From: Candidatus Eiseniibacteriota bacterium
GTDB taxonomy: Bacteria > Eisenbacteria > RBG-16-71-46 > SZUA-252
Assembly (NCBI GenBank): GCA_035716005.1
Contig: DASTKG010000143.1
Coordinates: 490 to 64,489 of the forward strand
Direction of reading: 5' to 3'
Length of the DNA: 64,000 nt
The notes beneath the pieces were generated by a model, which did no database searches, was not told the origin of the DNA, and worked only from the letters and a program-made list of their open reading frames with translations. Made by a program: the position numbers and the translations under genes. Shown one piece after another: positions 10,369 through 55,439 of this stretch (within the stretch, counting starts at the first letter, position 1; each line of letters starts with the position of its first letter).

Positions 10369-10370
10369 TC

Positions 10371-25149: not shown

Positions 25150-26135
<986 letters not shown>

Positions 26136-26139
<4 letters not shown>

Positions 26140-27011: not shown

Positions 27012-27015
27012 GGCG

Positions 27016-28068
27016 ATGCGCGCGCGCCGACTGACTCGCCCGCGCGGAGCGATCGCCGCGGCGTTCGCGTTCGCGGTCCTCGTCCCGGCGCTGGCCGGCT
27101 GCGGCGGCTCGAACGAGGCGGGGAGCGCGCGCGAGCGGGACGAGCAGCGCGCCTACGGCCGCGTGGTGGCGCGAAGCGAAGTCTCGCCGCGCCGCGTCAC
27201 GCTCGGCGATCCCGTCGTCTGGACCCTGACCGCGACCCTGCCGCCGACGAGCGTCCCGGGAGCGGTGCGGCTCGCGCCGGCTCCCGCCACGCTCGAGATC
27301 GTGCCCCGCGGCGAACCGACGATCCGTCCCGCGCGGGGCGCCGTCGTCTGGAGCCGCGTCTACGATCTTCGAGGCTTCGATCTCGGCCCGCTTCCGCTTC
27401 CCGAGGCGCTCCTGCGCGTCAACGTGGGGCGGCCCGGGAGCGTCGTCGTCCGCGACTCGCTCCTCTTTCCGCCCGACACGCTCGCGGTCGATTCGCTCAC
27501 GCCGGCCGCGACCGGCGCCCTCTCGCCCGATCGCGGGCCCGTCGATCCGGGACTCCGGCCGATCGACGTCGCGGTCGCCGTGGGGTTGGCGCTGCTCGTC
27601 GTGGGACTCCTCGTCGCGCTCGTCCTGGCTTGGCGGCGCAGGCGGGCTCGCCCCGAGCCGGCCCTCCCCGGCGAGGCGCCGGAAGCCCCGTTCGCGCGGG
27701 CGCTCGAGTCGCTCCGGCAGGACGGCCCGGCCCTTCCGCGCGACGCGTTCCACGACCGCCTGAGCGACGCCATCCGCCGCTACGTGACCGCGGCGACCGG
27801 CGTCGACGCCATCGATCTCACGACGCGCGAGCTGGAGCGCGAGCTGAGACGCTCGCCGCGCGCCCGCGACGAGGCGGCGGCCGAGGTGGTCCGCATCCTT
27901 CGCCGCTCCGACCTCGTGAAGTTCGCGCGCCGCTCCGACGCGTGGGAGGAGGCGAAGACGCTCCTGGAGGACGCGGCCCGCCTCTCCGGCGCCGTGGCGG
28001 CGGAGCCCGCGCCTGGAGCGGAGCCCGCACCCGCTCCCACGCCCGCGCCCGGACGGGAAGGGACGTAG
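27016..28068 (+). CDS. hypothetical lipoprotein/membrane protein of the Bat-type operon (DUF4381-like position)
   Basis: Lipobox-like LAGCGG signal, an internal TM helix (VAVGLALLVVGLLVALVLAW), and conserved position between the DUF58 gene and batA. Confidence 0.5.
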   Translation: MRARRLTRPRGAIAAAFAFAVLVPALAGCGGSNEAGSARERDEQRAYGRVVARSEVSPRRVTLGDPVVWTLTATLPPTSVPGAVRLAPAPATLEIVPRGEPTIRPARGAVVWSRVYDLRGFDLGPLPLPEALLRVNVGRPGSVVVRDSLLFPPDTLAVDSLTPAATGALSPDRGPVDPGLRPIDVAVAVGLALLVVGLLVALVLAWRRRRARPEPALPGEAPEAPFARALESLRQDGPALPRDAFHDRLSDAIRRYVTAATGVDAIDLTTRELERELRRSPRARDEAAAEVVRILRRSDLVKFARRSDAWEEAKTLLEDAARLSGAVAAEPAPGAEPAPAPTPAPGREGT

Positions 28069-28071
28069 CCG

Positions 28072-29058
28072 ATGCGATTCGCCGCGCCCTGGTTCCTCCT
28101 CCTCCTGCTGCCGCTCCTCGCGGGCTGGCTCCTACGCTGGCGCCGTTCCCGCTGGCGCGAGCCGGAGCTTCCCGTGTCGAGCCTCGCGGCCTTTCCGTCG
28201 CCGAAGGGTTGGAAGCCGCGGATCGCGCCCCTCGCGGGCCGGCTCGTGGCGCTGGCGAGCCTCGCCTTCGTCGTCGCGGCGGCGCGCCCGCAGGCGGGAC
28301 GCGAAATGCGCGAGGTCGTGAGCGAGGGCATCGACATCGTTCTCGCCATCGATCTCTCGGGGAGCATGCGCTGCGAGGACTTCCGGCCGCAGAACCGGCT
28401 CTACGTCGCGAAAGCGGTGGCGAAGGAATTCCTGAAGGGGCGGAAGCAGGACCGGATCGGGCTCGTGGCCTTCGCGGGACGGAGCGAGCTGATCGCGCCG
28501 CTCACGCTCGACTACGACGGGCTCGCGTCGCTCATCGACGGGCTCGATTTCGGGATGCTCCCCGACGGGACCGCGGTCGGCGCGGCCGTGGCGCAGGGCG
28601 CGCAGCGGCTGCGCGAGGCGAAGGGGAAGAGTCGCGTGCTGATCCTCCTCACGGACGGAATCAACAACGCGGGCGCGATCGACCCGATCACCGCGGCGAG
28701 GCTCGCGGCCGCCGTGGGCGTGCGGGTCTACACCATCGGCGCGGGAACGCAGGGGCAGGCGCCCTTTCCCGTCGACGATCCGATCGTGGGACGCCGCTAC
28801 GTCTGGGTCCGATCGGAGGTGGACGAGCCGACGCTCCAGGCGGTCGCCACCGTGACGCACGGGCGTTTCTTCCGCGCGACGACCGCGGCCCTCCTCTCCC
28901 GCGTCTATCAGGAGATCGACAAACTGGAACCGTCGCGCATCGAGACGCGTTCGTATACGCAGTGGGCCGAGGTCGGCCCGATCTTCCTGGCGGCGGGGCT
29001 CGCGCTTCTGGGGCTCGACCTCCTCCTCCGCGCCACGCTGCTCAGGCGGTATCCCTAG
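28072..29058 (+). CDS. batA: BatA-like von Willebrand factor A domain membrane protein
   Basis: N-terminal TM, VWA MIDAS motif DLSGSM and a C-terminal TM. Confidence 0.75.
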   Translation: MRFAAPWFLLLLLPLLAGWLLRWRRSRWREPELPVSSLAAFPSPKGWKPRIAPLAGRLVALASLAFVVAAARPQAGREMREVVSEGIDIVLAIDLSGSMRCEDFRPQNRLYVAKAVAKEFLKGRKQDRIGLVAFAGRSELIAPLTLDYDGLASLIDGLDFGMLPDGTAVGAAVAQGAQRLREAKGKSRVLILLTDGINNAGAIDPITAARLAAAVGVRVYTIGAGTQGQAPFPVDDPIVGRRYVWVRSEVDEPTLQAVATVTHGRFFRATTAALLSRVYQEIDKLEPSRIETRSYTQWAEVGPIFLAAGLALLGLDLLLRATLLRRYP

Positions 29059-29059
29059 G

Positions 29060-30082
29060 ATGGGCGGCATGCGCTGGGCGGCTCCCGAGTGGTTCGCGCT
29101 TCTCTGGCTCCTGCCGGTCGCCGCGGCCTTTCTGGTCTGGATCGCGCGCGCGCGCCGGCGGGACGAGGAAGCGCTCGGCGATCCCGCGGCGCTCCGGCGG
29201 CGATGGGGCGCGCCGGGGGCGTGGAGCCCGCTCGTTCGCTCGGCGCTCCTGCTCGGCGCGGTCGCGGCCGCCATCGTCGCGCTCGCCCGTCCGCAGGCGG
29301 GGCTTCGCCTCGTGAGCACGACGAGCACCGGTCCCGACGTGGTGATCGCGCTCGACCTGTCGGAGAGCATGCGCGCGCGCGACGTCCGTCCCGACCGCCT
29401 GGTGGCGGCGCAGCGGGAGATCGCGGCGCTCCTCGCGTCGCTCGAGGGCTCCGGCGTCGGGCTCGTCGGTTTCGCCGGCGAGGCGCGGGTCCTGAGCCCT
29501 CTCACGACCGACGTCGAGGGACTGCGCGATCGGATCGACGCGGCGAGCCCCGAGGAGATGGATATCCCGGGCACCGACGTGGGCGCCGCGGTGGCGCTGG
29601 CGGGCCAGCTCCTGAAACGCCCCGGGGAGCGGCCGCGCGCCATCGTCCTCGTGACCGACGGAGAGCAGCAGGAAGGGGAGATCGCGCGCGGATTGCCGAT
29701 CGTGCGGGCCGCGGGCGCCTCGCTCTTCGTGCTCGGCGTCGGAACGCCCGAGGGGAGTTCCATACCGATCGTCGATTCGACCGGCGCCGTCGTGGGGGTG
29801 AAGCGGGACCGCGCGGGCCGCGAAGTGAGGACGCGCCTGGTGGAGGATGGATTGCGGGAGCTGGCGAGACGCGCGGGCGGGCAGTACGAACGGGCCGACG
29901 GAAGCGGGCGCGCCGGAAGGCACGCCGCGGCCGTCGCGCGCGGGCTCGCGCTCGGAGCCCGCGGGGATCGCGGCGGGCGCTCCCTTCGCGCGTACGACGA
30001 GCGCTTCCACTGGCTCGCGGCGATCGCGGTCCTCCTCCTCGCCGGCGAGAGCTTCGTTCCGCGGCGAAGGGAGGACGCATGA
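29060..30082 (+). CDS. batB: BatB-like VWA domain membrane protein
   Basis: VWA MIDAS motif DLSESM, a BatA paralogue with N- and C-terminal TM segments. Confidence 0.7.
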   Translation: MGGMRWAAPEWFALLWLLPVAAAFLVWIARARRRDEEALGDPAALRRRWGAPGAWSPLVRSALLLGAVAAAIVALARPQAGLRLVSTTSTGPDVVIALDLSESMRARDVRPDRLVAAQREIAALLASLEGSGVGLVGFAGEARVLSPLTTDVEGLRDRIDAASPEEMDIPGTDVGAAVALAGQLLKRPGERPRAIVLVTDGEQQEGEIARGLPIVRAAGASLFVLGVGTPEGSSIPIVDSTGAVVGVKRDRAGREVRTRLVEDGLRELARRAGGQYERADGSGRAGRHAAAVARGLALGARGDRGGRSLRAYDERFHWLAAIAVLLLAGESFVPRRREDA

Positions 30083-30834
30083 CCTCGAAGCGGCGCCGGG
30101 GCCCGGGCGGGATGGGGCGCGCTCCCGTCGAATTCCTCCTGCTCCTCGCGCTCGCGTCGCTCGGCGCGGGCTACGAGTGGGGCGGTCCCGCCGCGCGCGC
30201 GATCCAGCAGCTTCGCGCCGGGAAGTCGCGCGAGGCCGTCTCGTCGTTCGAGGAGGCGAGGCGGGAACGGCCGGCCTCCTCCGCCGTTCGCTACGACCAG
30301 GCGCTCGCGTTCGCCGCCGCCGGCATGGCCGATTCGGCGAGCGCCGCCTACCGCGACGCGCGCGACCTCCAAGGGGCCGCCGGGCGCGCCGCCGCCGCCT
30401 ACAACGAGGGAAACGCCGCCTACCGGCAGGGGAAGATCGAGGACGCCATCGCCGACTACCGCGCGGCGCTGCGGGAGGATCCGAAGCGCGCCGACGCGAA
30501 GCGGAATCTCGAGGAGGCGCTGCGCCGCGCCCGCGAATCGCGCCAGGCGCCGCTCTCGGGGAGCGGCGGAACGCAGGGAGACGGCTCGGGAGGCACGGGG
30601 CAGCGCCAGGGCGGCTCGACGCCCCCGCCGCCGGGCGCGGCGAACGCGCCGAACGATTCGAAGTCCGACTCGAAATCGAAGGATCGTCCCTCGCTCGGCG
30701 CGCCGGCTCCGAATCGCGAGGAGGCGGAGCACTGGCTCGACGCGCTCGAGGCCGAACGCCGCGCGGGACGATCGCGCGAGCAGGCGGCGAAGCGCGCCGC
30801 CTCGAGGGAGGGGAGCGTCGACCGTGACTGGTGA
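30079..30834 (+). CDS. batC: TPR-repeat protein (BatC-like)
   Basis: TPR-like helices (AAYNEGNAAYRQGKIEDAIADYRAAL) and a low-complexity K/S-rich tail. The ATG overlaps the batB stop. Confidence 0.6.
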   Translation: MTSKRRRGPGGMGRAPVEFLLLLALASLGAGYEWGGPAARAIQQLRAGKSREAVSSFEEARRERPASSAVRYDQALAFAAAGMADSASAAYRDARDLQGAAGRAAAAYNEGNAAYRQGKIEDAIADYRAALREDPKRADAKRNLEEALRRARESRQAPLSGSGGTQGDGSGGTGQRQGGSTPPPPGAANAPNDSKSDSKSKDRPSLGAPAPNREEAEHWLDALEAERRAGRSREQAAKRAASREGSVDRDW

Positions 30835-32602
30835 GCGCTCGATCCGGGTCGCGGCGGCCTCGGCGCTCCTCTTCGCGGCGCTCGCGGCGCTCGCGATTCC
30901 GTCGCCCGCGCGGGCGGCGATCATCCAAACCCGGGTGTCGGTCGACCCGCCGGTCGTCATGCTGGGCGAGCCCGTCAACGTCACGGTCACGGTGGAGAGC
31001 GACGGCTTCGCGCAAGCCGAGATCGTCCCTCCCAGTGTGGCGGGACTCTCGATCGAACGCGCCGGAACTTCGCAGAACCTCGTCATGGGCGCGGGGAGCG
31101 TGGTCCGAACCGACGTCTCCGTCTTTCGCGTGACGGCGGCCACGCTCGGGAAGCAGAAGATTCCCTCCTTCGAAGTCGTGTACGACCGGAAGGTCGTCCA
31201 GACCGGCCCGGCCCTCTTCGAGACGGTCTCCTCGCTCCCGAACGCGGGCGCGGCGCCGCGGGGCGGCGATGGGGCCCGGACGCGGCTCTTCGCGAGAATC
31301 GTCGTCGACCGGCGCCACGTCTGGTGGAACGAGCAGATCGTCGCGCGCATCCAGGTCTACTCCCGCTCGCCGCTCGAGGACATGCCGACGTGGGAGCCTC
31401 CCGAGGCGGCCGGATTCTGGAGCGAGCCGCTGGGCGACGCTCGGCACGGCCGCGTGGAGGTCGAGGGCGAGCCGTTCGAGCTCTACGAGCGGATTTTCGC
31501 CTTCTTTCCCACGCGGCCCGGCCGATTGGCGCTCGGGCCCGCGCGCGCGCGCGTCCGGGTCCTTCGCCCGCTCGCGCCCGTCGACGATCCCATCCTGGGA
31601 TTCTTTCCGGGGGCGGCGTCCGAAGTCGTGGAGCTGCCGGTCGAGTCGGCGCCGGTCGACATCGCCGTCGACCCGCTCCCGCGGGGCGCGCCGCCGGGAT
31701 TCCGCGGCGCCGTCGGCCGGCTCGCGCTCGGCGTCCGCGTCGACCGGCCCGCCTCGAGAGTCGGCGAGGCGATCACCGTGTCGACCTCGATCCGCGGCGA
31801 AGGGAACCTCGCCTCCGCCGCCGATCCGACGATCGTCACGCGCCCCGCGGCGCCTTCCTACCCGGCGGGCGCGAAAACCGAATTCGATCGGACCGGCGAT
31901 CGCGTTCGCGGCGTGCGCCGCCGCGACGTCGCCTTCGTGCCCGATCGCCCGGGCTCTCTCCTGGTCCTCCCGATCGAATTCGCCTGGTTCGATCCGGAGG
32001 AAGGGCGATACCGCGTGCAGCGCTCCGACAGCATCGTCGTCCGCGTCTCTCCGGCGAAGGAGGGCGCGGAGGGAGGCGCCGACGTCGCATCGACCGCCAT
32101 GGGAGTGCCGGCGCCGCCGCGGCCCGCCTCACGTGCCGGCGCGGGAGGGCCGCTGACCGGGCTTCCCACGGGCCTTCCGCTCGCCGTCTGGATCCTTTCG
32201 CTGTCGGGTTACGCGGTCGCCGGGGTCGCCGTCGCGTCGAGGCGCCGCGCCGTGCGCGATCCGAAGTGGCGGCGGGCGAGACTCGCCGAGGAGGCGGCGC
32301 GGCGCGTGGACGCCGCGTCGCGCGAAGGGGACGCGGCCCGCGCCGCCGAGCGAACGGAGGCGGCCCTTCGAGACGCGGCCGGGATCCGATTCGGCATCGA
32401 CCCGGAGGGGAGATCGAGACGGGATCTCCTCGAGCGGTTGCGCGCGGCCGGGGTGGGGCCGGAGGAGGTGGAGGAGGTGACGGGGATCCTCGGACGGCTC
32501 GAGCGAGGCGCGTTCGCCCCCGGCGGGCGCGACGACGTCGCGCACGCGATTCGCGAGGCGACGGCGCTCGCCGCGCGCTGGAGGGACGCGTGCCGGAGCT
32601 GA
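30824..32602 (+). CDS. batD: BatD-like protein (oxygen-tolerance family)
   Basis: Signal peptide, a large extracytoplasmic beta-rich region, a single C-terminal TM and a cytoplasmic tail, consistent with BatD architecture. Confidence 0.6.
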   Translation: MTGERSIRVAAASALLFAALAALAIPSPARAAIIQTRVSVDPPVVMLGEPVNVTVTVESDGFAQAEIVPPSVAGLSIERAGTSQNLVMGAGSVVRTDVSVFRVTAATLGKQKIPSFEVVYDRKVVQTGPALFETVSSLPNAGAAPRGGDGARTRLFARIVVDRRHVWWNEQIVARIQVYSRSPLEDMPTWEPPEAAGFWSEPLGDARHGRVEVEGEPFELYERIFAFFPTRPGRLALGPARARVRVLRPLAPVDDPILGFFPGAASEVVELPVESAPVDIAVDPLPRGAPPGFRGAVGRLALGVRVDRPASRVGEAITVSTSIRGEGNLASAADPTIVTRPAAPSYPAGAKTEFDRTGDRVRGVRRRDVAFVPDRPGSLLVLPIEFAWFDPEEGRYRVQRSDSIVVRVSPAKEGAEGGADVASTAMGVPAPPRPASRAGAGGPLTGLPTGLPLAVWILSLSGYAVAGVAVASRRRAVRDPKWRRARLAEEAARRVDAASREGDAARAAERTEAALRDAAGIRFGIDPEGRSRRDLLERLRAAGVGPEEVEEVTGILGRLERGAFAPGGRDDVAHAIREATALAARWRDACRS

Positions 32603-33294
32603 CCCGCGCGGGCGATCTCTACAACGCCGGGAGCGAGGCGCTCGCCAACGGCAATCTGGGCGAGGCGGTCCTCTTCCTTCGCGCGGCGTCGCGGCTCGAG
32701 CCGCGCGCGAAGGACGTGGCGCGGAATGTCTCGATCGCCGAGGCGCGCGTGGCGCTGACGCGCGGCGAGGGACCGACGCGGCTCTCGGGCGGGGGCGGCT
32801 TCGGGCTTTCGAGCGGCGAAGCGTGGCTCCTCGCCGCCCTGCTGATCGCGCTCGGCGCCGCGGGACTGGCGTGGCGCCGCCGGCGCCTCGCGCGGATCGC
32901 CGTTTCGGCCGCCGGCTCGGACGCCCTCCGCGATCCTCGCTCGCTCCTCGCGAGCCGCGTGCTCGACGCCGCGGGGATCGCGGGATTCGCGCTCTCCGCG
33001 TGGCTCGCGGCGGGCGCGGTCATGGAGCGCGTGGCCCCGGAGGCGGTGGTGCTCGATCGATCGCTTCCGCTCACCGCGGCGTCGGGCCAGCCTCTGCCCG
33101 AGGCGCCGGCGCTCGTGGCGGGGGAGCGCGTCCGTCTCGGCGCCGAGCGGGAAGGGCTCGTGGAGATCCGGCTCGGGGGGACGAACGTCGGCTGGGCGCG
33201 CCGGTCGGGCGTGTGGCGGGTGGTCGACGCGTCACGCTATACTCTCCCTTCTTCCACGGATGGGAACGTGCGGCCCGGGAGGACGAATGGATAA
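32590..33294 (+). CDS. batE: BatE-like protein (TPR N-terminus, TM, SH3b-like C-terminus)
   Basis: The GTG start overlaps the batD stop. A TPR-like segment, one TM and a C-terminal beta-rich region are present, in the BatE operon position. Confidence 0.5.
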   Translation: MPELTRAGDLYNAGSEALANGNLGEAVLFLRAASRLEPRAKDVARNVSIAEARVALTRGEGPTRLSGGGGFGLSSGEAWLLAALLIALGAAGLAWRRRRLARIAVSAAGSDALRDPRSLLASRVLDAAGIAGFALSAWLAAGAVMERVAPEAVVLDRSLPLTAASGQPLPEAPALVAGERVRLGAEREGLVEIRLGGTNVGWARRSGVWRVVDASRYTLPSSTDGNVRPGRTNG

Positions 33295-34003
33295 CGAAGC
33301 GACGGCCATCATCACGGGGGGCACGGGAGCCCTCGGCTCCGTCGTGACGCGCTCGTTCCTGCGCGCGGGCTATCGCTCGGCCGTGACCTATCGCGCGTCG
33401 AAGGAGTGGGAGGCGCTGGCGGCCTCGGAGAAGGCGGCCGTCGCGGAGGGCCGCCTCCTAGGATTCGCCGCCGACGTCACCGACGATGCCTCGCTGGAGG
33501 GCGCCGTCGCGTCGGCCGCGTCCGAGTTCGGCCGCCTCGACGTTCTGGTCCACGTGGCGGGCGGCTACGCCGGCGGAAGGACCGTGGAGAACCTCGACGC
33601 GAAGAGCGTGCGGGGCATGATCGACCTCAACCTCGTCTCCGCCTTCTGGGCGGCGAAGCACGTCGTCCCGCACGCCAAGAAGCATGGCCGCGGACGGCTC
33701 CTCTTCATCTCCTCGCGCGGCGCCGTGGAATGCCAGCCGGGCGCGGCGCCGTACGCGGCCGCGAAGCTCGGCCTTCACGCGCTCGTCCAGACGCTGGCCA
33801 GGGAGCTGAAGCGCGACGGCGTGACCGCCCACGCGGTCCTGCCGAGCGTCATCGATACGGCGGCGAATCGGGCCGCGATGCCGGACGGCGAGTTCGGCGA
33901 CTGGGTGAAGCCCGAAGCCATCGCCGAAGTCCTCGTGTTCCTCGCTTCCGAAAACGCCGCGGCGACGTCGGGAGCGCTCGTGCCGATCTATGGGAGGGCC
34001 TGA
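33287..34003 (+). CDS. SDR-family NAD(P)-dependent oxidoreductase
   Basis: TGGTGALG Rossmann motif and a YAAAK catalytic YxxxK. GGGAGG RBS precedes the ATG. It overlaps the batE stop by 8 nt. Confidence 0.8.
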
Positions 34004-35112
34004 TGAGCGACGCCCGTCCGAAGTACCAGAAGGGTCCCCGCATCGCGCCTGAGCCGCTGAAGCCCGGCGTGACCGTCGACCAGCTCGTCGACAGCACCTT
34101 CCTCGCCTACAACGGCGCGCGCTTGCGGGAGGCCTGCCGGCTCCTGGTGGAGCGGATGCTCGAACCCGACGTCACCGTGGGGCTCACCCTGAGCGGCGCC
34201 CTCACGCCGGCGGGCCTCGGACGCTCCTGCCTCATCCCGCTTCTCAAGGCCGGCTTCGTCGACTGGATGATCTCGACCGGCGCGAATCTCTACCACGACA
34301 CCCACTTCGGCATCGGCCTCACCATGCACCAGGGCCACTCGAACGCCGACGACATCGCGCTTCGCGAGCAGGGGATCGTGCGGATCTTCGACATCTTCTT
34401 CGACTACGAGGTCCTTCTCTCCACCGACGCGTTCTTCCGCGAAGTGATGCGGCAGCCCGAATTCCGCCGCCCGATGAGCACGGCCGAGTTCCACCACAGG
34501 GCCGGCCGCTACGTCGCGGAGCGGGAGAAGGCGCTGGGCCAGGTCGAGACCTCCCTGCTCGCGGCCGCGCACGGGCTCGACGTGCCGATCTACACCTCCT
34601 CGCCGGGCGATTCCTCGATCGGCATGAACGCGGCGGCGATCCAGCTCGAAGGGGAGGCGATCCACTGGGACACGTTCCAGGACGTGAACGAGACGGCCTC
34701 CATCGTCTACGGCGCGAAGAAGGTGGGCGGCAAGAGCGCCATCCTCATCCTTGGCGGAGGCTCGCCGAAGAACTTCGCGCTCCAGACGGAGCCGCAGATC
34801 CAGGAAGTCCTCGGGCTCGACGAGGCGGGGCACGACTACTTCCTGCAAGTGACCGACGCGCGCGCCGACACGGGCGGGCTCTCGGGCGCCACGCCCGGGG
34901 AGGCGGTGTCGTGGGGGAAGATCGATCCCGACCGGCTCCCCGACGCGGTGGTGGCGTACGTCGACAGCACCGTCGCGCTTCCGATCCTGACGGCGTACGC
35001 GCTCAGCAAGCGGCCGGCGCGCCCGCTGAAGCGCCTCTACGCGAAGCGCGAGTCGCTCCTTGCGGATCTGAAGGCCGCGCACGCGGAGGCGCGAGCGGCG
35101 GGGACTCGGTGA
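34003..35112 (+). CDS. deoxyhypusine synthase-like protein (DHS/homospermidine-synthase family)
   Basis: Conserved DHS C-terminal active-site motif [10 protein letters not shown] (the catalytic Lys context of eukaryotic DHS) and a glycine-rich [15 protein letters not shown] region. TGATG overlap with the SDR gene. Confidence 0.75.
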
Positions 35113-36257
35113 CCCTCGCTCGGAGAGCGTGGGGCGCCGCGGTCGCGTTCCTCGCGCTGGCGTCGTCGTCCGGATGGGTGCCGAGCGCCGCCGGAGCCCC
35201 CTATCCGCCGTCCCAATTCTGCGGCGCGTGCCACGGTCCGCTCCGGACGCAGTGGGCGGCGTCGGGTCACGCCACGTCGTGGACCAACCCCGTCTTTCAG
35301 GCGTTCCTGGCCCAGGCGACGGAGACGCTCGGCAAGGACGTCCAGGCGTCGTGCATTCCGTGCCACGCCCCGCTGGCGCACGTGACGGGGGACTTGAAGG
35401 TGGACGACGCGGTCGCGAAGGAGGGGGTCACCTGCAACTTCTGCCACAACGTGAGCGCCGTCGATCCCTCGACGAAAGCCGGCTCCTACACGTTCGATCC
35501 GTCGAACCCGAATCTCATGCGCGGACCGTACAAGGACGCCGATCCGGCCGGGGCGCACGAGGCGGTCTATAGCGAGGTCCACACGAAGTCGGAATTCTGC
35601 GCGGCGTGCCACTCCTTCACGCACCCTCGGAGCGGAGTCCTGATCGAGGGGACTTACCTTTCCTGGAAGCGCTCCGGCGGCGCCGAGTACGACATGACGT
35701 GCCAGGAGTGCCACATGCCGCCGACGTCCGGACGCGCCGCCACGGTCACGGAGAAGACGCGCAGCGCCGTCTATTCGCACCTCTTCGCGGGTCCGCGGAA
35801 GGCGCCCGCGATGCTCGACGACGCCGCGGCCATGAAGGGCTCGGTGGCGGGAGGGCGGCTTCGCCTGGAGGTCGAGAACACGAAGGCGGGGCACTCGCTT
35901 CCCGGCGGCGGCAATTCGATGCGAACGATCACCCTCGACGTCGTCTTCAAGAACGCCGCCGGCGCCGAGGTGCAGTCCATTCAAGCCGAGCGATTCGGCA
36001 CCGAGTTCGCCGACGCCGAGGGCGTCTTCCCGGTTCCGAAGTGGAACGCGCATTCGGTCGCGCGCGACACGGAGATCGGGCCCGACTCCTCGCGCGTCGT
36101 TTGGTGCGACATTCCGGCGGGAGCCTCCCGCGCGGACGCCGTCCTCACGTATCACGCGATCCATCCCGCCTATCGAGCGATGCTCGTGAAGCGCGGGGTC
36201 GATCTTTCCGGCCGCGCCCCGATCGTGCTGGCGCGGACCACGGTGACCTTGCCATGA
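35109..36257 (+). CDS. pentaheme c-type cytochrome (periplasmic)
   Basis: Signal peptide and five CxxCH motifs (CGACH, CIPCH, CNFCH, CAACH, CQECH). The GTG overlaps the DHS stop. Confidence 0.75.
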
Positions 36258-37387
36258 GCGCTTCCACCACCGAACGCCCCATTCCGCTTCTCGACCTCGC
36301 CGCCCTCCACCGGCCGCTGACCGACGAATTGCGCCAGGCCTTCGACCGGGTTCTCGCGTCGGGGCAGTTCATCCTGGGGGCCGAGCACGACGCCTTCGAG
36401 CGGGAGCTGGCGGCCGCGTGCGGAACGAAGCACGCCGTCGGGCTCTCCTCGGGCACGTCGGCCATCTCGGTCGGGCTCCAGGCCCTCGGCGTGAAGCCGG
36501 GGGACGAGGTCGTCGTTCCGGCGTTCACCTACTTCGCCACGGCGAGCGCCGTCTATCACGCGGGCGCCACGCCGGTCTTCGCCGACGTGGAGCCGGCGCG
36601 CTTCGGCCTCGATCCGGCCGCGCTCGAGGCGGCGATCACGCCGAGGACGAAGGCCGTCGTCCCGGTTCATCTCTACGGCCTCGCCTGCGATCTCGCCCCG
36701 CTCGTCGAGATCGGCGCCCGGCGGGGGATACCTCTCCTCGAGGACGCGGCGCAGGCGATCGGCGCGACCGACGGCGGGCGCCCCGTGGGGGCGACCACCG
36801 CGGGGGCGACCCTCTCCTTCTTCCCGACGAAGAATCTCGGCGCGCTCGGCGACGCCGGCGCGCTCCTCACCGATCGCGACGACGTGGCCCAGAGAACGCG
36901 CCTCCTGCGCGTCCACGGCGACGCCGGCGACTATCGCCACACGGCGCTCGGCACGAACGCTAGGCTCGACGGACTGCAGGCGGCGCTCCTCCGCGTGAAG
37001 CTTCGCCACCTTGCCGGGTGGACCGAGGCGCGCCGGCGGAACGCGGCGCTCTATCGCGAGGCGCTGGCCGGAACGCCGGTCGTCCTCCCCGTGGAGCCGG
37101 CGGGGGCCGTGCACACGTACCACCAGTTCACCATTCGCGCGCCGCGCCGCGACGAACTCCAGCGGCATCTGAAGGAGAGCGGCATCGCGTCGCGCATCTA
37201 CTATCCGATCCCGGTGCCGGCGCAGCCCTGCTTCGAGGGCGCGGCCGCCGTCGGGAAATACCCCGTCTCCGATCGGCTGGCGGGGGAAGTTCTCTCGCTT
37301 CCGATCGGTCCCGAGCTGACGTCCGAGTCGATCGATCGGATCGCGGGCGCCATCCGCGGCTTCTACGGCGGGGGCGGGGGCTCCTGA
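36254..37387 (+). CDS. DegT/DnrJ/EryC1/StrS-family PLP-dependent sugar aminotransferase
   Basis: LSFFPTKNLGALGDAG PLP-lysine motif and the family N-terminus LLDL..L...L..A...VL.SG. Confidence 0.8.
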   Translation: MSASTTERPIPLLDLAALHRPLTDELRQAFDRVLASGQFILGAEHDAFERELAAACGTKHAVGLSSGTSAISVGLQALGVKPGDEVVVPAFTYFATASAVYHAGATPVFADVEPARFGLDPAALEAAITPRTKAVVPVHLYGLACDLAPLVEIGARRGIPLLEDAAQAIGATDGGRPVGATTAGATLSFFPTKNLGALGDAGALLTDRDDVAQRTRLLRVHGDAGDYRHTALGTNARLDGLQAALLRVKLRHLAGWTEARRRNAALYREALAGTPVVLPVEPAGAVHTYHQFTIRAPRRDELQRHLKESGIASRIYYPIPVPAQPCFEGAAAVGKYPVSDRLAGEVLSLPIGPELTSESIDRIAGAIRGFYGGGGGS

Positions 37388-39870
37388 TGCCGACTCCTTC
37401 GCGTCTCGTCCGCATCGGTCTCATCGCGGCGGGCTCGCTCGTCGGGCTCGTCGTGCTCGTGCTCGGTCTCGCGTACGCGTTCATGCCGCGCGACTGGATC
37501 GACAAGGAGGCGCGGCGGCAAGCGGCGCTGATGAGCGGCGCCGCCGTGAGCTGGAAGAGCCTCGAGCCGGGCTTCGACGGCCTCTCGATCGGCGTCCGGA
37601 TCTCGGGCCTCGCGGTCACGATGCCGAAGCAGGGCGATCCGCGACTCGACCTCCGCGCGAAAGAGGTCTTCGTCCGCTTCCGGATCCTTCCGCTCCTCAT
37701 GCGGCGCGTGGAGATCGCCGCCGCGAAGGTGAGCGACGCGGGAATCGCCATGTGGGATCGGGGCCCGCTGCCGCAGGCGCCGGCCGCGGCGCCGGGAAGC
37801 GCGCCGGGGCCGGGAATGGCCCTCGTCCTGCCGAAGCTCGAGCTGGACGGCATCGACGTCCGGACGCGAGACCTGTTCGGCGGCGGCATCGATCTCCGGC
37901 GGATCCGCGGAACGACCGAGATCGAGGGGACGCTCGACGCTCCGCGGGCGGTCCGCCTCGAGGCGTCCGCGGAGAGCCTCTTCTGGAAGGGCTCGGCGCG
38001 CGATCCGCTCATCGCGCTCCCCTCGCCGCTTCACGCCGACATCGCCATGCGGGGAAGCGGCGGCGCGCTGCCGAAGCTCGACGTGACGCGCGGCGTGGTG
38101 ACGCTCGGCCCGCTGAAGAGCGACGTGAGAGGCTCGGTGACGCTCCCGCCGGCCCCCGCTCCGGCGCGGCTCGATCTCGCGATCGTCGGTGCGCCGCAGG
38201 AGATCCGGTCGAGCGATCCGGCCTTCCGGGGCTTCGCCGCCGCCTCGCCCGCGGCGTGGTCGACGAAGGCCTCCTGGGACGTGAAGATCGCCGGGACGGC
38301 GGAGGCGCCCGTCCAGTCGGGCTCGGCGAAGCTGGCGCCGCTCCAGGTGGAATCGGGGCCGAACAAGTTCGCGCTCGATCAGGTGCGAGCCGACTGGAGC
38401 GTCACGCCCGACAAGCGCTTCACCGCGACGGCCGACGGGAACGGATCGGGCGTCACGCTTCGGCTCGACATGCAGGGATCGACCGAGCCGGGCGGCGAGT
38501 CGAACGGGACCTTCCAGCTCGACGCGCCCGCGACGAGGCTGAACGGGCTCGCGCCGAACACGCCCACCTGGGCGAGCGGCGCCCTCGGTCTTCGCGCGGT
38601 CTTCGTGAATCGCGCCCCGAAGCCGCCGGCGGTCCAGTGGACGCTCCAAGGGCGCGACCTGAGCGGCACCTCGCCCGGCGTTCAGCCTCCCATCAAGCGG
38701 CTCCAGTTCGCGCTCGCGGGCGACATGGAACGCGTCGACGTGAAGTCGCTCGTCGCCACGATCGGCTCCACGACGGCGAACGTCACGGGGAACGTGCTCA
38801 TGGGGAAACCGCTCGGGACGGGCACCTTCACTGTCCGCGTGGACCGGTTCATCGCGGAGGAGTGGTCGCCCCCGAAGGGCGCGGCGCCGGCGACGCCGGC
38901 GGCGGGGAAGGGAGCGTCCGCTGCGCCGCCACCCCCGATTCCGTTCAAGCGGCTCACGGCGGACGTCGCGGTCGGGGAATTGAGGCAGGGAACCATGACG
39001 CTCCGCGACGTGACCGTGCCCGTCGTCTTCGAGAACGGCACGCTCACCATGGCCCCGATTCGGGCCTCGATGGGAACGGGAACGATCGCCGGCGCGCTGA
39101 CGCTGAACGATCTCGTCACGAAGCCCTCCTACGCCGTGAAGCTCGACGTGGTGAAGGCGCCGGTGGACGAACTCGCCCGGGGAATGATCCCCTTCAAGCT
39201 CGGTCTCTCCGGCCTCGTGAGCGGCAACGTCGATCTCGCCGGCCCCGGGCTGCCGGGTCCGGAGGTGAGCGATCAGCTGCGAGGCACCCTCACGGGGACG
39301 GTGGAGCAGGGAAAGATCGCCGAGAGCGAAGGGCTGAAGCAGATTCGCGGCGCGCTGGGGCTCGGGAACACCTCGGACGTCGCCTTCCGGACCCTCTCGC
39401 ACGTTCTTCGGATCGAGGGCGGCCGGCTACTCCTCGACAAGGTCAAAGGCGACCTCGGCGCCGACAAGTTCGAATTGACCGGCGCGCTCGGCATGGACAA
39501 GTCGCTCAATCTGGGCCTCCTCCTCCGGCTCGCGCCGGAGCGGGTGAAGGGGAACAGCACCCTGGCGCAGTTCGCGCGCCTGGCTCGCGACGCGGACGGG
39601 CGCCTGCCGGTCGAGCTCGGGATCGGCGGGACGACGGACGCGCCGAGGGTCCAGTTGAAGGCCGGCAAGCTCCTCGACGTCGCGGGGCAGAGCCTGAAGG
39701 AAGAGCTGACGAAGTCGCTCACGAAGCAGCTCACGCCGAAGACGCCGCCGGCCGCGGCGGACTCGGCGCGCGGGCGAGGCGACTCGGCCGCGGCGAAGCC
39801 CGACAGCGCGAAGCAGGAGGACCCGCTCCGGAAGGAGAAAGAGGCCCTCCGGCGCCTCCTCGGCAAGTGA
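37387..39870 (+). CDS. AsmA-family protein (N-terminal TM anchor, large periplasmic beta-rich domain)
   Basis: TM LVRIGLIAAGSLVGLVVLVLGLAY followed by ~800 aa of AsmA-like low-complexity beta-rich sequence. TGATG overlap with the upstream gene. Confidence 0.65.
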   Translation: MPTPSRLVRIGLIAAGSLVGLVVLVLGLAYAFMPRDWIDKEARRQAALMSGAAVSWKSLEPGFDGLSIGVRISGLAVTMPKQGDPRLDLRAKEVFVRFRILPLLMRRVEIAAAKVSDAGIAMWDRGPLPQAPAAAPGSAPGPGMALVLPKLELDGIDVRTRDLFGGGIDLRRIRGTTEIEGTLDAPRAVRLEASAESLFWKGSARDPLIALPSPLHADIAMRGSGGALPKLDVTRGVVTLGPLKSDVRGSVTLPPAPAPARLDLAIVGAPQEIRSSDPAFRGFAAASPAAWSTKASWDVKIAGTAEAPVQSGSAKLAPLQVESGPNKFALDQVRADWSVTPDKRFTATADGNGSGVTLRLDMQGSTEPGGESNGTFQLDAPATRLNGLAPNTPTWASGALGLRAVFVNRAPKPPAVQWTLQGRDLSGTSPGVQPPIKRLQFALAGDMERVDVKSLVATIGSTTANVTGNVLMGKPLGTGTFTVRVDRFIAEEWSPPKGAAPATPAAGKGASAAPPPPIPFKRLTADVAVGELRQGTMTLRDVTVPVVFENGTLTMAPIRASMGTGTIAGALTLNDLVTKPSYAVKLDVVKAPVDELARGMIPFKLGLSGLVSGNVDLAGPGLPGPEVSDQLRGTLTGTVEQGKIAESEGLKQIRGALGLGNTSDVAFRTLSHVLRIEGGRLLLDKVKGDLGADKFELTGALGMDKSLNLGLLLRLAPERVKGNSTLAQFARLARDADGRLPVELGIGGTTDAPRVQLKAGKLLDVAGQSLKEELTKSLTKQLTPKTPPAAADSARGRGDSAAAKPDSAKQEDPLRKEKEALRRLLGK

Positions 39871-40883
39871 GCGCGCCGGCCAAGGGGCCCGCCATCGAGA
39901 CGGCGGGGCTGACGCGCACGTTCCACACGCGCCGCGAACGCGACGTGCTGGCCCTGCGCGGCGTCGATCTCCGCGTGGAGCGCGGCGAGTGCTTCGGGCT
40001 CCTGGGGCCGAACGGCGCCGGGAAGAGCACCCTCATCAAGATCCTCACGACGCTCCTTCTTCCCACGTCGGGGAGCGCCCGCGTCGCGGGCTTCGACGTG
40101 GCGAAGGAGGCGCTCGCCGTCCGTCATCGGATCAACCTCGTCTCGGGCGGCGACTCGTCGGGCTACGGCATTCTCACCGTGCGGGAGACGCTCCACCTCT
40201 TCGCGCGCTTCTACGGCGTGCCGTGGCCCGAGGCGAAGCGGCGCGCCGAGGAGCTGATGGAGATCACCGGGCTCGGTCCCAAGGCCGACACGCGGATGTC
40301 GGGGCTCTCCACGGGAATGAAGCAGAAGGTGAACTTCGCGCGCGGGTTCATGAGCGACCCCGAGATCGTCTTCCTCGACGAGCCGACCCTCGGTCTCGAC
40401 GTGGAGGCGTCGCGGGCCATCCGGAGCTTCATCGCGCGTTGGGTGCGGGAGCGCCCCGATCGCACGGTGCTCCTCACCACCCACTACATGGTGGAGGCGG
40501 ACGAGCTCTGCTGGCGCGTCGCCATCATCGATCACGGGAGGATCCTCGCGCTCGACACGCCGCGCGCCCTGAAGCGCGCGCTTCCCGAGGAAACGGTCTT
40601 CGTCCTCCACCTCGCCGCGCCGCCGCCCGCCGGCTGGGACGCGGGGATCGGGGGGATCGAGTCGGCGATCCATCAGACGCACCCGGGGACGGGCGGAACC
40701 GAGCTTCGGGTCACGCTGCGCGAGGATCAGGTGATCGGGGAGATCCTCGGCGCCTTCCGCCAGCGCGACATCGAGGTGCTCGATCTCACGAAGCACGAGC
40801 CGACCCTCGAGAGCGTCTTCGTGAATCTGGTCGGGCGCGGGCTCGACGAGGCGGACGCGCCGGAGGCGGAGGCGCGCGCGTGA
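39867..40883 (+). CDS. ABC transporter ATP-binding protein
   Basis: Walker A GPNGAGKST, ABC signature LSTGMKQKV and Walker B VFLDEPT. The GTG overlaps the AsmA stop. Confidence 0.85.
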   Translation: MSAPAKGPAIETAGLTRTFHTRRERDVLALRGVDLRVERGECFGLLGPNGAGKSTLIKILTTLLLPTSGSARVAGFDVAKEALAVRHRINLVSGGDSSGYGILTVRETLHLFARFYGVPWPEAKRRAEELMEITGLGPKADTRMSGLSTGMKQKVNFARGFMSDPEIVFLDEPTLGLDVEASRAIRSFIARWVRERPDRTVLLTTHYMVEADELCWRVAIIDHGRILALDTPRALKRALPEETVFVLHLAAPPPAGWDAGIGGIESAIHQTHPGTGGTELRVTLREDQVIGEILGAFRQRDIEVLDLTKHEPTLESVFVNLVGRGLDEADAPEAEARA

Positions 40884-41716
40884 GCCGCGAGCCTCGAACG
40901 TTCGCCGACGTCCTCCGGATGAACCTCGGCGCGGTGACGGCCCGCGCGAGCGTCCGCATGGTCGCGGCCTTCCGCGAGCGTTCCTGGCTCTTCGGAGAGA
41001 CGGTCTTCCCGTTCCTCTCCATGTCGACCTTCGTGCTCGTCTACCGGGGGCTCCACGCGCCGCCCGCGTTCGAGGCGTTCGCCGTGCTGGGGGGCGCCAT
41101 GATCGCGTACTGGAACAACGTCCTCTGGAGCATGGCGAGCCAGTTCTTCTGGGAGAAGGAGCAGGGGCAGCTTCAGCTCTATCTCATCACTCCCGTCTCC
41201 CGCATGTCGATTCTCCTCGGCATGGCCCTCGGCGGCATGCTCGCCACGACGACGCGCGCGATCGTGATCCTCGCGGCCGGACTCTGGATCTTCCACGTCC
41301 CGTTCCCGCTCGAGCGGGTTCCGGCCGCGCTCGGTCTCTTCGTGCTCACGCTCGGCGCTCTCTACGGACTCGGCATGATCCTGAGCAGCGTATTCCTGCT
41401 GTGGGGACGCGAAGCCTGGAACACGGTCACCCTCTTCCAGGAGCCGGTCTATCTCGCCTCGGGCTTCTACTTCCCGGTCCGAGCGCTCGGCACCTTCGTC
41501 GCCTCCGCGGCGGGGCTGATCCCGATCACGCTCGGTCTCGACGGCATCCGCCAGATCTTCTACGGCGAGGCGGCGCGGGGCTTCCTGCCCCTCGCGTGGA
41601 TCGTGCCGATCCAGGCCGTGCTCCTCGTTCTCTATCTCTTCCTCGCGCACCGCGCGCTTCTCACGATGGAGAACCTCGGCAAGCGGGAGGGGAGGCTCAC
41701 GATTCGTGGCGGCTGA
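40880..41716 (+). CDS. ABC-2 type transporter permease
   Basis: Six predicted TM helices of the ABC-2 exporter family. The GTG overlaps the ATPase stop. Confidence 0.75.
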   Translation: MSREPRTFADVLRMNLGAVTARASVRMVAAFRERSWLFGETVFPFLSMSTFVLVYRGLHAPPAFEAFAVLGGAMIAYWNNVLWSMASQFFWEKEQGQLQLYLITPVSRMSILLGMALGGMLATTTRAIVILAAGLWIFHVPFPLERVPAALGLFVLTLGALYGLGMILSSVFLLWGREAWNTVTLFQEPVYLASGFYFPVRALGTFVASAAGLIPITLGLDGIRQIFYGEAARGFLPLAWIVPIQAVLLVLYLFLAHRALLTMENLGKREGRLTIRGG

Positions 41717-42575
41717 CGGCGGGGGATTCGGCCTGAAGCGGATGTGGGAGACGATGCGCGCCGGAGCGTGGATCGGCTGGCAGGTGGAGGCCAACTGGGC
41801 CGATCCGTTCCTCTTCCTCGTCTTCGCCATCGCGAAGCCGCTCTCGACGACCCTCATTCTCTATCTCATGACGAAGGTCGTGTCGGGCGGCGCCGTGACG
41901 CCCGCCGCGTTCCATCAACTCTTCATCGGGAACACCTTCTTCCTCTACGTGACCGAGGTCTTGATCGGCATCTCGTGGGCCGTCTTTCGCGATCGCGAGG
42001 ACTACGAGACGATGAAGTACATCTACACCTCGCCGATCCGCTTCCTCCACTATCTCCTGGGGCGGGGACTGACGAAGGTGGCGACGGCGTCGATCGGCAT
42101 CGCCTGCGCGCTCGCGTTCGGCGCCCTCGTTCTCGGCGTCCCGCTCCGTCACGACCCGGCGACGCTCGCCAAGCTCCTCGCCGTCACCATCGTCGGGCTG
42201 GTCGGCGTGATGTGGCTCGGCGTCTCGTTGGCGGGGATCTCGCTCGTGGTGGCGCGTCACAGCATCACTCTGAACGAGGGACTGAGCGGCGTCTTCTACC
42301 TGCTCTGCGGCGCCGTCTTCCCGATCGACGTCCTGCCGAGCTTCGCGCAGCGAATTTCCCTCCTGCTGCCGTTCACCTACTGGCTGGAGCTCCTGCGCAG
42401 AGTCCTGACGGGGATTCCGTACTCGGGGGCCTTGCGGGGAATGGACGACGCGGCGCTCGGAACGATCCTCGTCGCGACCACGCTCGCCACGATGATCGGG
42501 GGCTATCTCTGGTTCTCGTGGTGCGAGCGGACGGCGCGGGCTCGCGGCCTCATCGATTGGAAGTCGAACTACTGA
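41706..42575 (+). CDS. ABC-2 type transporter permease (second subunit)
   Basis: Polytopic membrane protein paralogous to the upstream permease. An alternative ATG lies at 41742. Confidence 0.7.
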   Translation: MAADGGGFGLKRMWETMRAGAWIGWQVEANWADPFLFLVFAIAKPLSTTLILYLMTKVVSGGAVTPAAFHQLFIGNTFFLYVTEVLIGISWAVFRDREDYETMKYIYTSPIRFLHYLLGRGLTKVATASIGIACALAFGALVLGVPLRHDPATLAKLLAVTIVGLVGVMWLGVSLAGISLVVARHSITLNEGLSGVFYLLCGAVFPIDVLPSFAQRISLLLPFTYWLELLRRVLTGIPYSGALRGMDDAALGTILVATTLATMIGGYLWFSWCERTARARGLIDWKSNY

Positions 42576-50094: not shown

Positions 50095-50111
50095 GTCGCC
50101 GCTCGCGACGC

Positions 50112-51464: not shown

Positions 51465-51613
51465 CCTTCCCGTCGGCCGGGACTAAGGGTCTGTGCGTCC
51501 AGATATCTCGATGAGCGAGTCAGTCCGTGCATCGGGGAATAAGGCCGTCCGCCGGGCGCCGGCGCCAACCCAGACACGCCGCGGGACCGACGGACGGCCG
51601 TTCCGAATCCTGC

Positions 51614-53919: not shown

Positions 53920-53950
53920 ATCGTTCCTCCTGGGTTGATCCGAAGCGGGC

Positions 53951-55054: not shown

Positions 55055-55439
55055 GCGTCTCCTCGAGATCGTGAGCGGGAAACGATGGGCAACGCGGCCC
55101 GCTCCCATCCTGGACTTCGGGCACGATCGGCCACGACGGCTCGACGAACGCCGCCACGCCCCCCAGCGCAAGCGAACATGCCCTCCGAGGCGTGGCCCAC
55201 ACGATGAGTCCGTGGCGGCCCCATGCCTCCGTGGAGAAGCTAGTGTCGGGAGTCCGGTGCATCAATAGACCCTTGGTCCCATACCCGCATGGGACTCCAG
55301 GGACGCAAGATACGAAATCCGAACAGGCCGGAGTCTGCCTGAGAGAAGGCGAAACGGCAACGACCTTCCTGCCGGGGTCCGGCCCGGCATGGGAAGCCGG
55401 AGCATGACGGGCCTATTCCACAATCGAAAGGAGCGGGTC

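Follow-up and report, generated by a model that had tools for sequence, protein, structure and literature searches.

We analysed a 64-kb stretch of DNA from a Candidatus Eiseniibacteriota genome (contig DASTKG010000143.1; hereafter the window), in which an open reading frame (ORF) at 35109-36257 on the forward strand, with a GTG start and a TGA stop, encodes a protein of 382 amino acids (aa). ORF calling, Pfam and NCBIfam models, profile searches and Foldseek matches identify this ORF as the gene for a pentaheme c-type cytochrome of the PHC family. Upstream of it lies a gene for a deoxyhypusine-synthase-like protein (DHS-like; 34003-35112, forward strand), which matches the 'homospermidine biosynthesis protein' model NF001980 at 547 bits against a cutoff of 450, and downstream a gene for a pyridoxal-phosphate (PLP)-dependent sugar aminotransferase of the DegT/DnrJ/EryC1 family (DegT; 36254-37387, forward strand). 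An earlier note on this DNA had described overlaps of 4 nucleotides (nt) on both sides of the cytochrome gene and both are present, one (GTGA) joining the DHS-like stop codon to the cytochrome GTG and the other (ATGA) joining the cytochrome stop codon to the DegT ATG.

The five CxxCH motifs, all read on the forward strand, are CGACH (residues 38-42; 35220-35234), CIPCH (residues 82-86; 35352-35366), CNFCH (residues 109-113; 35433-35447), CAACH (residues 164-168; 35598-35612) and CQECH (residues 198-202; 35700-35714), the last followed by a near-invariant Met203. The second is the counterpart of the motif that holds heme 2, the active-site heme, in MccSep. From how often Cys and His occur in the other genes of the window, only 2e-4 CxxCH motifs would be expected by chance in 382 aa against the five present, and the called genes, about 20,000 codons in all, contain just one other. 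None of the five varies among 28 orthologues or among 122 aligned members of the superfamily.

The sole hydrophobic segment of the protein is N-terminal. The Kyte-Doolittle mean over 19-residue windows peaks at 1.33 at residues 10-28, with no other hydrophobic stretch, and together with the orthologue alignment this marks residues 1-29 (35109-35195, forward strand) as a signal-peptide-like leader. No lipobox Cys was found in the leader and no conserved twin-arginine motif among the orthologues, so the cytochrome is probably exported by the Sec pathway. All of the heme motifs are downstream of the leader and therefore none falls in a membrane or cytoplasmic segment, whereas heme sites in cytoplasmic segments would, by the earlier note, have refuted its reading; the mature cytochrome would be a soluble periplasmic protein with every heme site outside the cytoplasm and the membrane. 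The motif count against chance, the invariance of the motifs and the N-terminal leader thus bear out the view of an exported multiheme cytochrome with five CxxCH motifs. The identical protein has been deposited under the annotation 'multiheme c-type cytochrome [Candidatus Eisenbacteria bacterium]', on a 64.6-kb contig of a metagenome-assembled genome.

Several searches placed this protein in a family. The broad c554/c-prime domain of Pfam (Cytochrome_C554, PF13435) matches residues 38-113 at 30.6 bits against a cutoff of 20.8, and the best NCBIfam match is the ExtKL selenoprotein model NF040886, at 54.5 bits against a cutoff of 250. A single-sequence search of the PDB found the penta-heme cytochrome c552 of Thermochromatium tepidum (5ZE8, E=7.5e-8), and a profile of 28 sequences run against the PDB sequences retrieved 5ZE8 at E=7.5e-20, MccSep at E of about 4e-7 and cytochrome c554 (1BVB) at E=0.0016. 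Further, an AlphaFold2 model built from the orthologue alignment without cofactors (mean predicted local distance difference test score, pLDDT, of 74.9) found in Foldseek a single whole-chain match, again 5ZE8 (E=1.6e-18, TM score 0.64), while the rest matched the immunoglobulin (Ig)-like domain alone. The secondary structure of the model and the Foldseek match to 5ZE8 describe an N-terminal helical heme domain followed by a C-terminal Ig-like beta-sandwich at about residues 238-382 (35820-36254, forward strand), where block-mean pLDDT is mostly 85-98 with a loop at about residues 261-270 at 60.

An exhaustive hidden Markov model (HMM) search of 1.84 billion representatives returned 6070 clusters at E<=1e-3. 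Exactly five CxxCH motifs are present in 127 of the top 149 representatives, most of which also carry GHxxPTG. The orthologous group appears as one representative at 620 bits, followed by a decaheme protein (P0121) at 365 bits and by others at no more than 255 bits. The named outgroup proteins belong to Methanoperedens/Methanosarcinales, Deltaproteobacteria, Tectomicrobia, Marinimicrobia, Nitrospiraceae, Geobacteraceae and Desulfobulbaceae. Both its sequence and its predicted fold make the window cytochrome a member of the PHC family, the type of T. tepidum c552 and Geobacter ExtKL-MccSep, a grouping made in the literature around c552, ExtKL and Gsu2801 (PMC11976967) and PtdA (bioRxiv 10.1101/2023.11.21.568154). 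Its clade is restricted to Eisenbacteria-type genomes, the next relatives being about 30% identical or less, and is recognized by Glu180, by PGGG in place of PTG, by the motif PVPKW and by a C-terminal VDLxGRxPVV segment. This places in a named family, the c552/ExtKL pentaheme cytochromes, a protein that had gone unannotated beyond the label 'multiheme c-type cytochrome' and that comes from a candidate phylum of which little is known. P0121 (MBI5442252.1), from a metagenome-assembled genome (MAG) of the Deltaproteobacteria, is the best non-orthologous relative at 30% identity and consists of two tandem PHC units with ten hemes. It was considered as a Rosetta-stone fusion and rejected, as its 794 aa are a tandem PHC duplication with no neighbour family fused.

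Heme ligands and the site at heme 2

For the active site we compared the protein with MccSep (ExtKL), a recently described periplasmic polysulfide reductase. In MccSep, bis-His ligation is found at hemes 1, 3, 4 and 5, heme 2 has His122 and Cys239 as its ligands, and selenocysteine-325 (Sec325), carried by a loop of the Ig-like domain, is essential (bioRxiv 10.1101/2025.11.18.688581). In our profile alignment Sec325 (GHSIPDGU) falls on Gly268 of the window protein, within the GHSLPGGG loop of its Ig-like domain (residues 261-268; 35889-35912, forward strand); the orthologues have Gly, Ser or Ala at this position and no Cys was found in this column in the 122-member superfamily sample. Cys239 of MccSep (QCCTSY) and Cys241 of c552 (PLCQT) align to Ile179/Glu180, in a region (GVLIEGTY) that has no Cys, and the sole Cys of the window protein outside the heme motifs, Cys333, is not conserved. 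Glu180 (35646-35648, forward strand) is nearly invariant in the clade and lies 16 residues past the first Cys of heme motif 4, which is the offset of Cys241 in c552 and close to that of Cys239 in MccSep. The ligand details that we use for c552 are drawn from alignments and the MccSep preprint only.

The other candidate ligands are widely conserved. His262 and Pro265 are present in 122 of 122 superfamily members and His150 and His224 in 120 of 122, and Arg272 is invariant. At column 54 the 122 members have His (98), Met (20) or Lys (3), and at column 180 most often Leu (35), Glu (25), Met (10) or Cys (9). This conservation, read against the MccSep structure, points to bis-His ligation of four electron-transfer hemes through His54, His150, His224 and His262. 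The sixth position of heme 2 would be without a conserved strong ligand in this clade, and we predict an open heme there. His54 (35268-35270) is His in the sub-clade of the window and Met or Lys in other Eisenbacteria orthologues, a variation that suggests ligand switching, and hence tuning of the redox potential, at one heme.

Lacking a Cys ligand as well as a Sec or Cys at heme 2, the window protein is not a sulfur reductase of the MccSep type. The selenium-sulfur mechanism of MccSep is thereby excluded for this cytochrome, which narrows the range of functions that it could have.

Gene order around the cytochrome

The window is 70% GC, and nearly all of its genes between 117 and 42575, which we annotated by an ORF choice based on GC at third codon positions (GC3) and by Pfam, are on the forward strand. 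A classical SDR gene (FabG-like; 33287-34003) precedes the DHS-like gene, and the DegT gene is followed by genes for an AsmA-like protein (37387-39870), an ABC ATPase (about 39870-40883) and two ABC-2 permeases (40880-41716 and 41706-42575). This string is contiguous, at junctions of -8 to +4 nt, with an upstream run at 25150-33294 that comprises genes for a MoxR ATPase, a DUF58 protein, BatX, BatA, BatB, TPR/BatC and BatD and one unassigned ORF, all of them on the forward strand. From the MoxR gene (25150) to the end of the last permease gene (42575) there are 16 genes, and 15 of the 15 junctions between them measure -11 to +4 nt, in a 17-kb string that covers at least three unrelated modules. 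Because the whole string is packed equally tightly, overlaps of 4 nt do not set the cytochrome gene apart. The GC3 of the cytochrome gene (0.88) is the lowest in the string, yet it is within 1.5 standard deviations of the mean (0.90 +/- 0.016). A consensus scan for promoters and terminators between 24.5 and 44.4 kb gave nothing above shuffled controls. No other cytochrome or respiratory gene was found in the 64-kb window, and together with the tight and conserved string this supports the earlier description of a cytochrome embedded in an operon. The SDR, DHS-like and DegT products are presumed to be cytoplasmic by analogy with their soluble NAD(P)- or PLP-dependent families, and the cytochrome is by contrast exported.

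Scanning for the cytochrome across one genome per GTDB species yielded 23 loci, 22 of which encode proteins 50-80% identical to that of the window and most of which are labelled Candidatus Eisenbacteria. In all 22 the order and strand of the DHS-like, cytochrome and DegT genes are the same wherever the contig reaches, with the AsmA-like and ABC genes downstream, and the Bat genes are upstream in every locus long enough to show them. The 23rd locus (Nitrospinales, 31% identity) has none of these neighbours and its cytochrome follows a large TPR protein. Merging near-identical contigs gave 26 non-redundant cytochrome-bearing lineages, across which the cytochrome has diverged to about 50% identity with the arrangement kept. 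Of 29 evaluable loci, 27 have a start codon that overlaps the DHS-like stop codon by 4 nt. With a single exception the loci have a junction of -4 or +1/+2 nt from cytochrome to DegT, and from DegT to AsmA-like the junction is -4 to +5 nt in every evaluable locus. The SDR gene is missing in two of the 26 lineages (L021/L038 and L022/L036). Conservation of position is not confined to the operon either. L018 is a complete MAG chromosome with a cytochrome 53% identical to that of the window, and beyond the ABC genes its gene order still matches the window through a TPR gene on the opposite strand, PTS EIIA and a Zn-ribbon gene. Since the region is generally collinear in this lineage, the conserved position of the cytochrome is weak evidence of a functional coupling.

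These loci also show some variation of their own. Four MAGs with the same Bat-SDR-DHS-cytochrome-DegT-AsmA string are labelled Latescibacterota, Binatia, Limnocylindrales and Dormiibacterota (L007, L013, L016 and L022), and these odd labels likely result from binning or labelling error and not from transfer of the whole region. In L017 (14717-17707), and also in L008 and L019-L022, an ORF of about 3 kb encoding a 996-residue M1-peptidase-like protein, which is not in the window, lies between the AsmA-like and ABC ATPase genes. The cytochrome of L021 (VBOR01000063.1, about 10000-10905) lacks residues 160-204 or thereabouts, including heme motifs 4 and 5, and changes frame. As L038, which is at least 97% identical, is intact, this is probably an assembly artefact, or else a very recent lesion, and we do not take it as evidence of loss. 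At the contig end of L011 (89-958) the DHS-like match upstream of the cytochrome is 46-57% identical, as opposed to 82-94% elsewhere, and may be a degraded or different copy.

We also scanned metagenome contigs with the DHS-like gene as the anchor and obtained 80 loci, ten with a DHS-like protein at least 80% identical to that of the window and 70 with one 65-72% identical. Among the ten, the cytochrome is present in every locus that extends past the DHS-like gene except L041 (Ga0182007_10021249, 1-2307). There the DHS-like protein is 88% identical, its gene ends at 981 and the DegT ATG is at 968, so that the two overlap by 14 nt with no cytochrome between them. Because the nearest relative of L041 for both its DHS-like and DegT proteins (91% and 80% identity), L016, carries the cytochrome, L041 suggests a secondary loss. 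A second cytochrome-less arrangement is found on two ENA contigs from farmland and forest soil (L112, 1-3214; L113, 1-1694), where LOG-like (Lysine_decarbox), DHS-like and DegT genes follow one another with a 4-nt overlap of the last two. The DHS-like protein of this lineage is 76% identical and, at 440 aa, has an N-terminal extension, and its DegT fragment is 73% identical over 92 residues. Neither an SDR gene nor a cytochrome gene was found on L112/L113 and no Bat genes are next to the DHS-like gene in the L112 lineage; this is probably the older arrangement. The cytochrome is thus dispensable for the pairing of DHS-like and DegT genes in two relatives.

Beyond these, 77 DHS-like loci of other lineages (the 70 loci at 65-72% identity and seven further contexts including two from Gemmatimonadaceae, Planctomycetes and Binataceae) were searched over 604 kb, and no ORF with three or more CxxCH motifs and none of the genes of this operon were found in them. 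Co-occurrence of the cytochrome with its neighbours wherever these occur, a check that the earlier note had proposed, therefore fails, given its absence from L041, from L112/L113 and from the 77 loci. In L024, L025, L031 and L112, which represent Gemmatimonadaceae-type and other lineages, a LOG-like (PF03641) gene is directly upstream of the DHS-like gene, and in this recurring pair the DHS-like enzyme may have its real functional partner.

The history that needs the fewest steps is that the DHS-like and DegT genes were an old coupled pair, that the cytochrome was inserted between them in the ancestor of the main Eisenbacteria clade and came to overlap both of them, and that it was later lost at least once. 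The earlier note had reasoned that absence of the cytochrome from otherwise syntenic relatives would argue for a recent, unrelated insertion. The absence is real, in L041 and in L112/L113; however, a recent horizontal insertion is ruled out by the native GC3 and by a position kept in 26 loci among orthologues only about 50% identical. The locus is a clean example of insertion into an overlapping gene pair, restoration of the overlaps and then long retention, and it cautions that function cannot be read from 4-nt overlaps in compact high-GC genomes.

Among distant members of the family, we sampled the surroundings of two and both are single genes among non-respiratory neighbours, so that stand-alone placement is seen for other short PHC members in the two contexts sampled. 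One (P0127; L116, 5550-8398) has Cys at column 180, the distal-ligand column of heme 2. It is flanked on one side by a rhodanese gene and on the other by DUF6132, thioredoxin, DUF302 and Zn-ribbon genes, with HSP20, TatA and ClpB upstream, and this thiol/sulfur-stress context fits MccSep-like chemistry for the clade of P0127. The second is near NfeD/Band_7 and a Zn-ribbon gene.

The remainder of the window is not respiratory in character. From 117 onwards the genes encode, in order, an HldE-like kinase and cytidylyltransferase, two heptosyltransferases and glycosyltransferases (lipopolysaccharide core), then RseP, BamA, TamB, UvrD, GatA, GatB, PurD, Sua5, a low-molecular-weight phosphatase, a class IV aminotransferase and GlyA, and after GlyA come the MoxR/Bat module, the unassigned ORF and the SDR-DHS-cytochrome-DegT-AsmA-ABC string. 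On the reverse strand, at 48487-55171, two genes for DcaP-like outer-membrane porins flank an unassigned ORF of 450 residues and a glutaminase gene, and past them lies a gene for an amidohydrolase; the cluster may serve the uptake and catabolism of amino acids or amides.

A passenger in the operon, or a partner of its neighbours

We favour, at a probability of roughly 55%, the reading that the cytochrome is a periplasmic pentaheme redox protein riding as a passenger in a housekeeping/envelope operon, and not a catalytic partner of the polyamine and sugar enzymes beside it. It is assigned the status of passenger because relatives couple the DHS-like and DegT genes without it and because plainly unrelated genes are packed just as tightly, and by the same token it would be functionally independent of its neighbours. 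Collinearity past the operon, the lack of a multiheme ORF in the 77 DHS-like loci and the stand-alone placement of distant PHCs point the same way. Its place in the operon would then reflect constitutive co-expression and not pathway coupling, the gene being co-transcribed and translationally coupled with a constitutive string of 16 housekeeping and envelope genes. In the model the N-terminal helical domain would carry five covalent hemes, and the Ig-like sandwich would place the GHxxPxG loop next to heme 2. By analogy with the path proposed for MccSep (bioRxiv 10.1101/2025.11.18.688581), electrons could enter from a membrane donor at heme 1, which would be solvent-exposed, travel by way of hemes 3 and 4 and arrive at the branch hemes, 2 and 5. 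Heme 2 or heme 5 would then deliver them to a small periplasmic acceptor or to a partner protein. Heme 2, beside Glu180 and the Gly-rich loop of the Ig-like domain, would be the likely site for a small acceptor, and it may have a catalytic role.

Several points weigh against this reading. The cytochrome is retained in 26 of the 27 non-redundant lineages of the clade with DHS-like proteins at least 80% identical (the exception being L041), or in 26 of 28 when L112/L113 are counted, and such retention, together with the conserved translational coupling, exceeds what a neutral passenger needs and would fit selection that keeps the gene expressed along with its neighbours. The L041 and L112/L113 contigs are short and taxonomically unplaced metagenome fragments. 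The heme domain of the cofactor-free AlphaFold2 model is weak, with residues 106-126 at pLDDT below 50, and the axial-ligand and open-heme assignments come from alignment alone. For electron donor, acceptor and cytochrome c maturation genes our view is confined to the window.

Near-universal retention and conserved translational coupling are also the strongest support for any reading that integrates the cytochrome with its neighbours, the strongest counterpoint being the cytochrome-less relatives and the equally tight packing of plainly unrelated genes. As a whole, the proposal of an integrated redox partner, which either cross-links or modifies an exported amino-sugar/polyamine component of the envelope or acts with MoxR/Bat as a Glu-assisted peroxidase or oxidoreductase that shields the envelope from oxidants at an open heme 2, seems to us quite improbable. 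If true, it would give the PHC family a new function, and Bat-linked aerotolerance in Eisenbacteria would gain its first biochemical foothold; a periplasmic multiheme protein would be tied to envelope biogenesis or to aerotolerance, a tie not known for this family. The pathway version, a periplasmic redox step on an envelope molecule made by the SDR, DHS-like and DegT enzymes and exported through the ABC-2 and AsmA-like proteins, is unlikely. It is favoured by the SDR-DHS-cytochrome-DegT-AsmA order and the overlapping or near-abutting junctions kept in 26 loci despite a cytochrome identity of about 50%, by the envelope/export character of the downstream genes in a window rich in envelope biogenesis (heptosyltransferases, BamA, TamB, RseP), and by invariant clade-specific surface motifs (PVPKW and VDLxGRxPVV) that suggest a conserved interaction partner. 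However, DHS-like and DegT genes are directly coupled without the cytochrome in L041 and L112/L113, and DHS-like orthologues occur in at least five other contexts without these neighbours. The two lineages without SDR and the M1-peptidase-like gene that splits the AsmA-like from the ABC genes in several loci show, further, that the string is not a fixed pathway unit, and tight packing is common to the unrelated MoxR/Bat genes. No DegT or homospermidine pathway is known to use a c-type cytochrome. The periplasmic maturation step put forward in the earlier note, as a role in polyamine or sugar modification, is unsupported, given that the 4-nt junctions are ordinary in this string, that collinearity is wider than the operon, that relatives lack the cytochrome, that 77 loci have no multiheme ORF and that the SDR, DHS-like and DegT enzymes are presumed cytoplasmic while the cytochrome is exported.

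The same note had tied the cytochrome to Bat aerotolerance biology. A role of this kind, with MoxR, DUF58 and BatA-D, would be peroxidase-like or would scavenge oxygen or nitric oxide at a five-coordinate heme 2 with Glu180 as distal carboxylate, and it is likewise quite unlikely. In every locus long enough to show it, the Bat module directly adjoins the cytochrome string and leaves no intergenic space, and Glu180 at the distal-ligand position of heme 2 may form with the invariant Arg272 a loosely peroxidase-like pairing; one distant PHC, moreover, is found among stress and thiol-redox genes (HSP20, ClpB, rhodanese, thioredoxin). Yet BatD and the cytochrome are four or five genes apart, the Bat genes are not next to the DHS-like gene in the cytochrome-less L112 lineage, Glu at column 180 is common across the superfamily (25 of 122), and the PHC with the stress context, P0127, belongs to a different clade and has Cys and not Glu at that column, which points to sulfur/thiol chemistry. 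Bat operons are not known to include a cytochrome. Packing common to unrelated modules and collinearity beyond the operon leave the tie to Bat unsupported. A component of extracellular or long-range electron transfer, either nanowire-like or a partner in a porin-cytochrome complex, is suggested by the nearest outgroups (Methanoperedens/Methanosarcinales, Deltaproteobacteria and Tectomicrobia), which are multiheme-rich lineages, and by the relation in the literature of c552-type PHCs to the archaeal AvECN nanowire and to PtdA porin-cytochrome clusters (PMC11976967; bioRxiv 10.1101/2023.11.21.568154). We consider it very unlikely, as no porin-cytochrome partner, further multiheme gene or lipoprotein signal was found in the window and the 26 loci, and the two DcaP-like porin genes of the window are 12-19 kb away on the other strand. 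Least probable is a polysulfide (elemental sulfur) reductase of the MccSep/ExtKL type. NF040886 is the best NCBIfam match, and the five-heme and Ig-like architecture and the GHSxPxG loop are shared. We nonetheless rejected this identity, since both catalytic residues are missing (Gly268 for Sec325, Ile179/Glu180 for Cys239, and a Cys333 that is not conserved), since 54.5 bits is far under the cutoff of 250, and since the MccSep variants C239H, U325A and U325C are nearly inactive (bioRxiv 10.1101/2025.11.18.688581).

Comparison with known multiheme cytochromes

The earlier note had proposed comparing the heme-motif spacing with that of cytochrome c554, NrfB and split-Soret families; of these, c554 fits only locally (residues 38-113) and NrfB gives no match, and the fit over the whole protein is instead to c552 and the PHC family. 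With T. tepidum c552 (5ZE8) the window protein shares five CxxCH motifs in the same order, an N-terminal heme domain, an Ig-like sandwich and a (G/P)HxxPxG loop. However, the two are only about 21% identical, the spacing between hemes 3 and 4 is 55 residues here and 98 in c552, Glu180 takes the place of Cys241 and PGGG that of PTGA, and the window clade has an extra conserved C-terminal segment. MccSep/ExtKL of Geobacter sulfurreducens (GSU2937-2936, PDB 9WT8) has the superfamily, the architecture and the periplasmic location in common with the window protein, and the alignment spans hemes 3-5 and the GHSxPxG loop; the differences are the absence of Cys239 (Glu180 region) and of Sec325 (Gly268) from the window protein and a score below the NF040886 cutoff.

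Likeness to other multiheme cytochromes is more restricted. Nitrosomonas europaea cytochrome c554 (1BVB) resembles the N-terminal 80 residues or so, which hold hemes 1-3, and its Pfam domain scores above cutoff, but it is a 211-residue tetraheme protein with no Ig-like domain and no fifth heme, and the similarity is confined to residues 39-118. NapC/NirT/NrfH proteins give weak local matches at hemes 4-5 (PF03264, 26.6 bits; the NrfH model TIGR03153, 31 bits against a 134-bit cutoff), of which the former covers only positions 31-93 of 174 (63 positions). A membrane anchor would be expected in that group, whereas the lone hydrophobic segment of the window protein is leader-like. NrfB also has five hemes, and the window protein has no match to the NrfB-like PF22678 at E<=0.01. 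Its heme spacing and Ig-like domain fit neither NapC/NirT/NrfH nor NrfB. We therefore rejected c554, NrfB and NapC/NirT as identities, the similarity being local to the heme motifs; the Ig-like domain, the length of 382 aa and the five hemes are, moreover, unlike c554. No split-Soret cytochrome was present among the PDB sequence matches or the whole-chain Foldseek matches, no model specific to split-Soret proteins having been run. Finally, the sPHC/Gsu2801 proteins of cable bacteria (PMC11976967) and PtdA (bioRxiv 10.1101/2023.11.21.568154), which we compared by their descriptions, are found in conductive-fibre or porin-multiheme clusters, while the cytochromes of the window clade are alone between biosynthetic genes.

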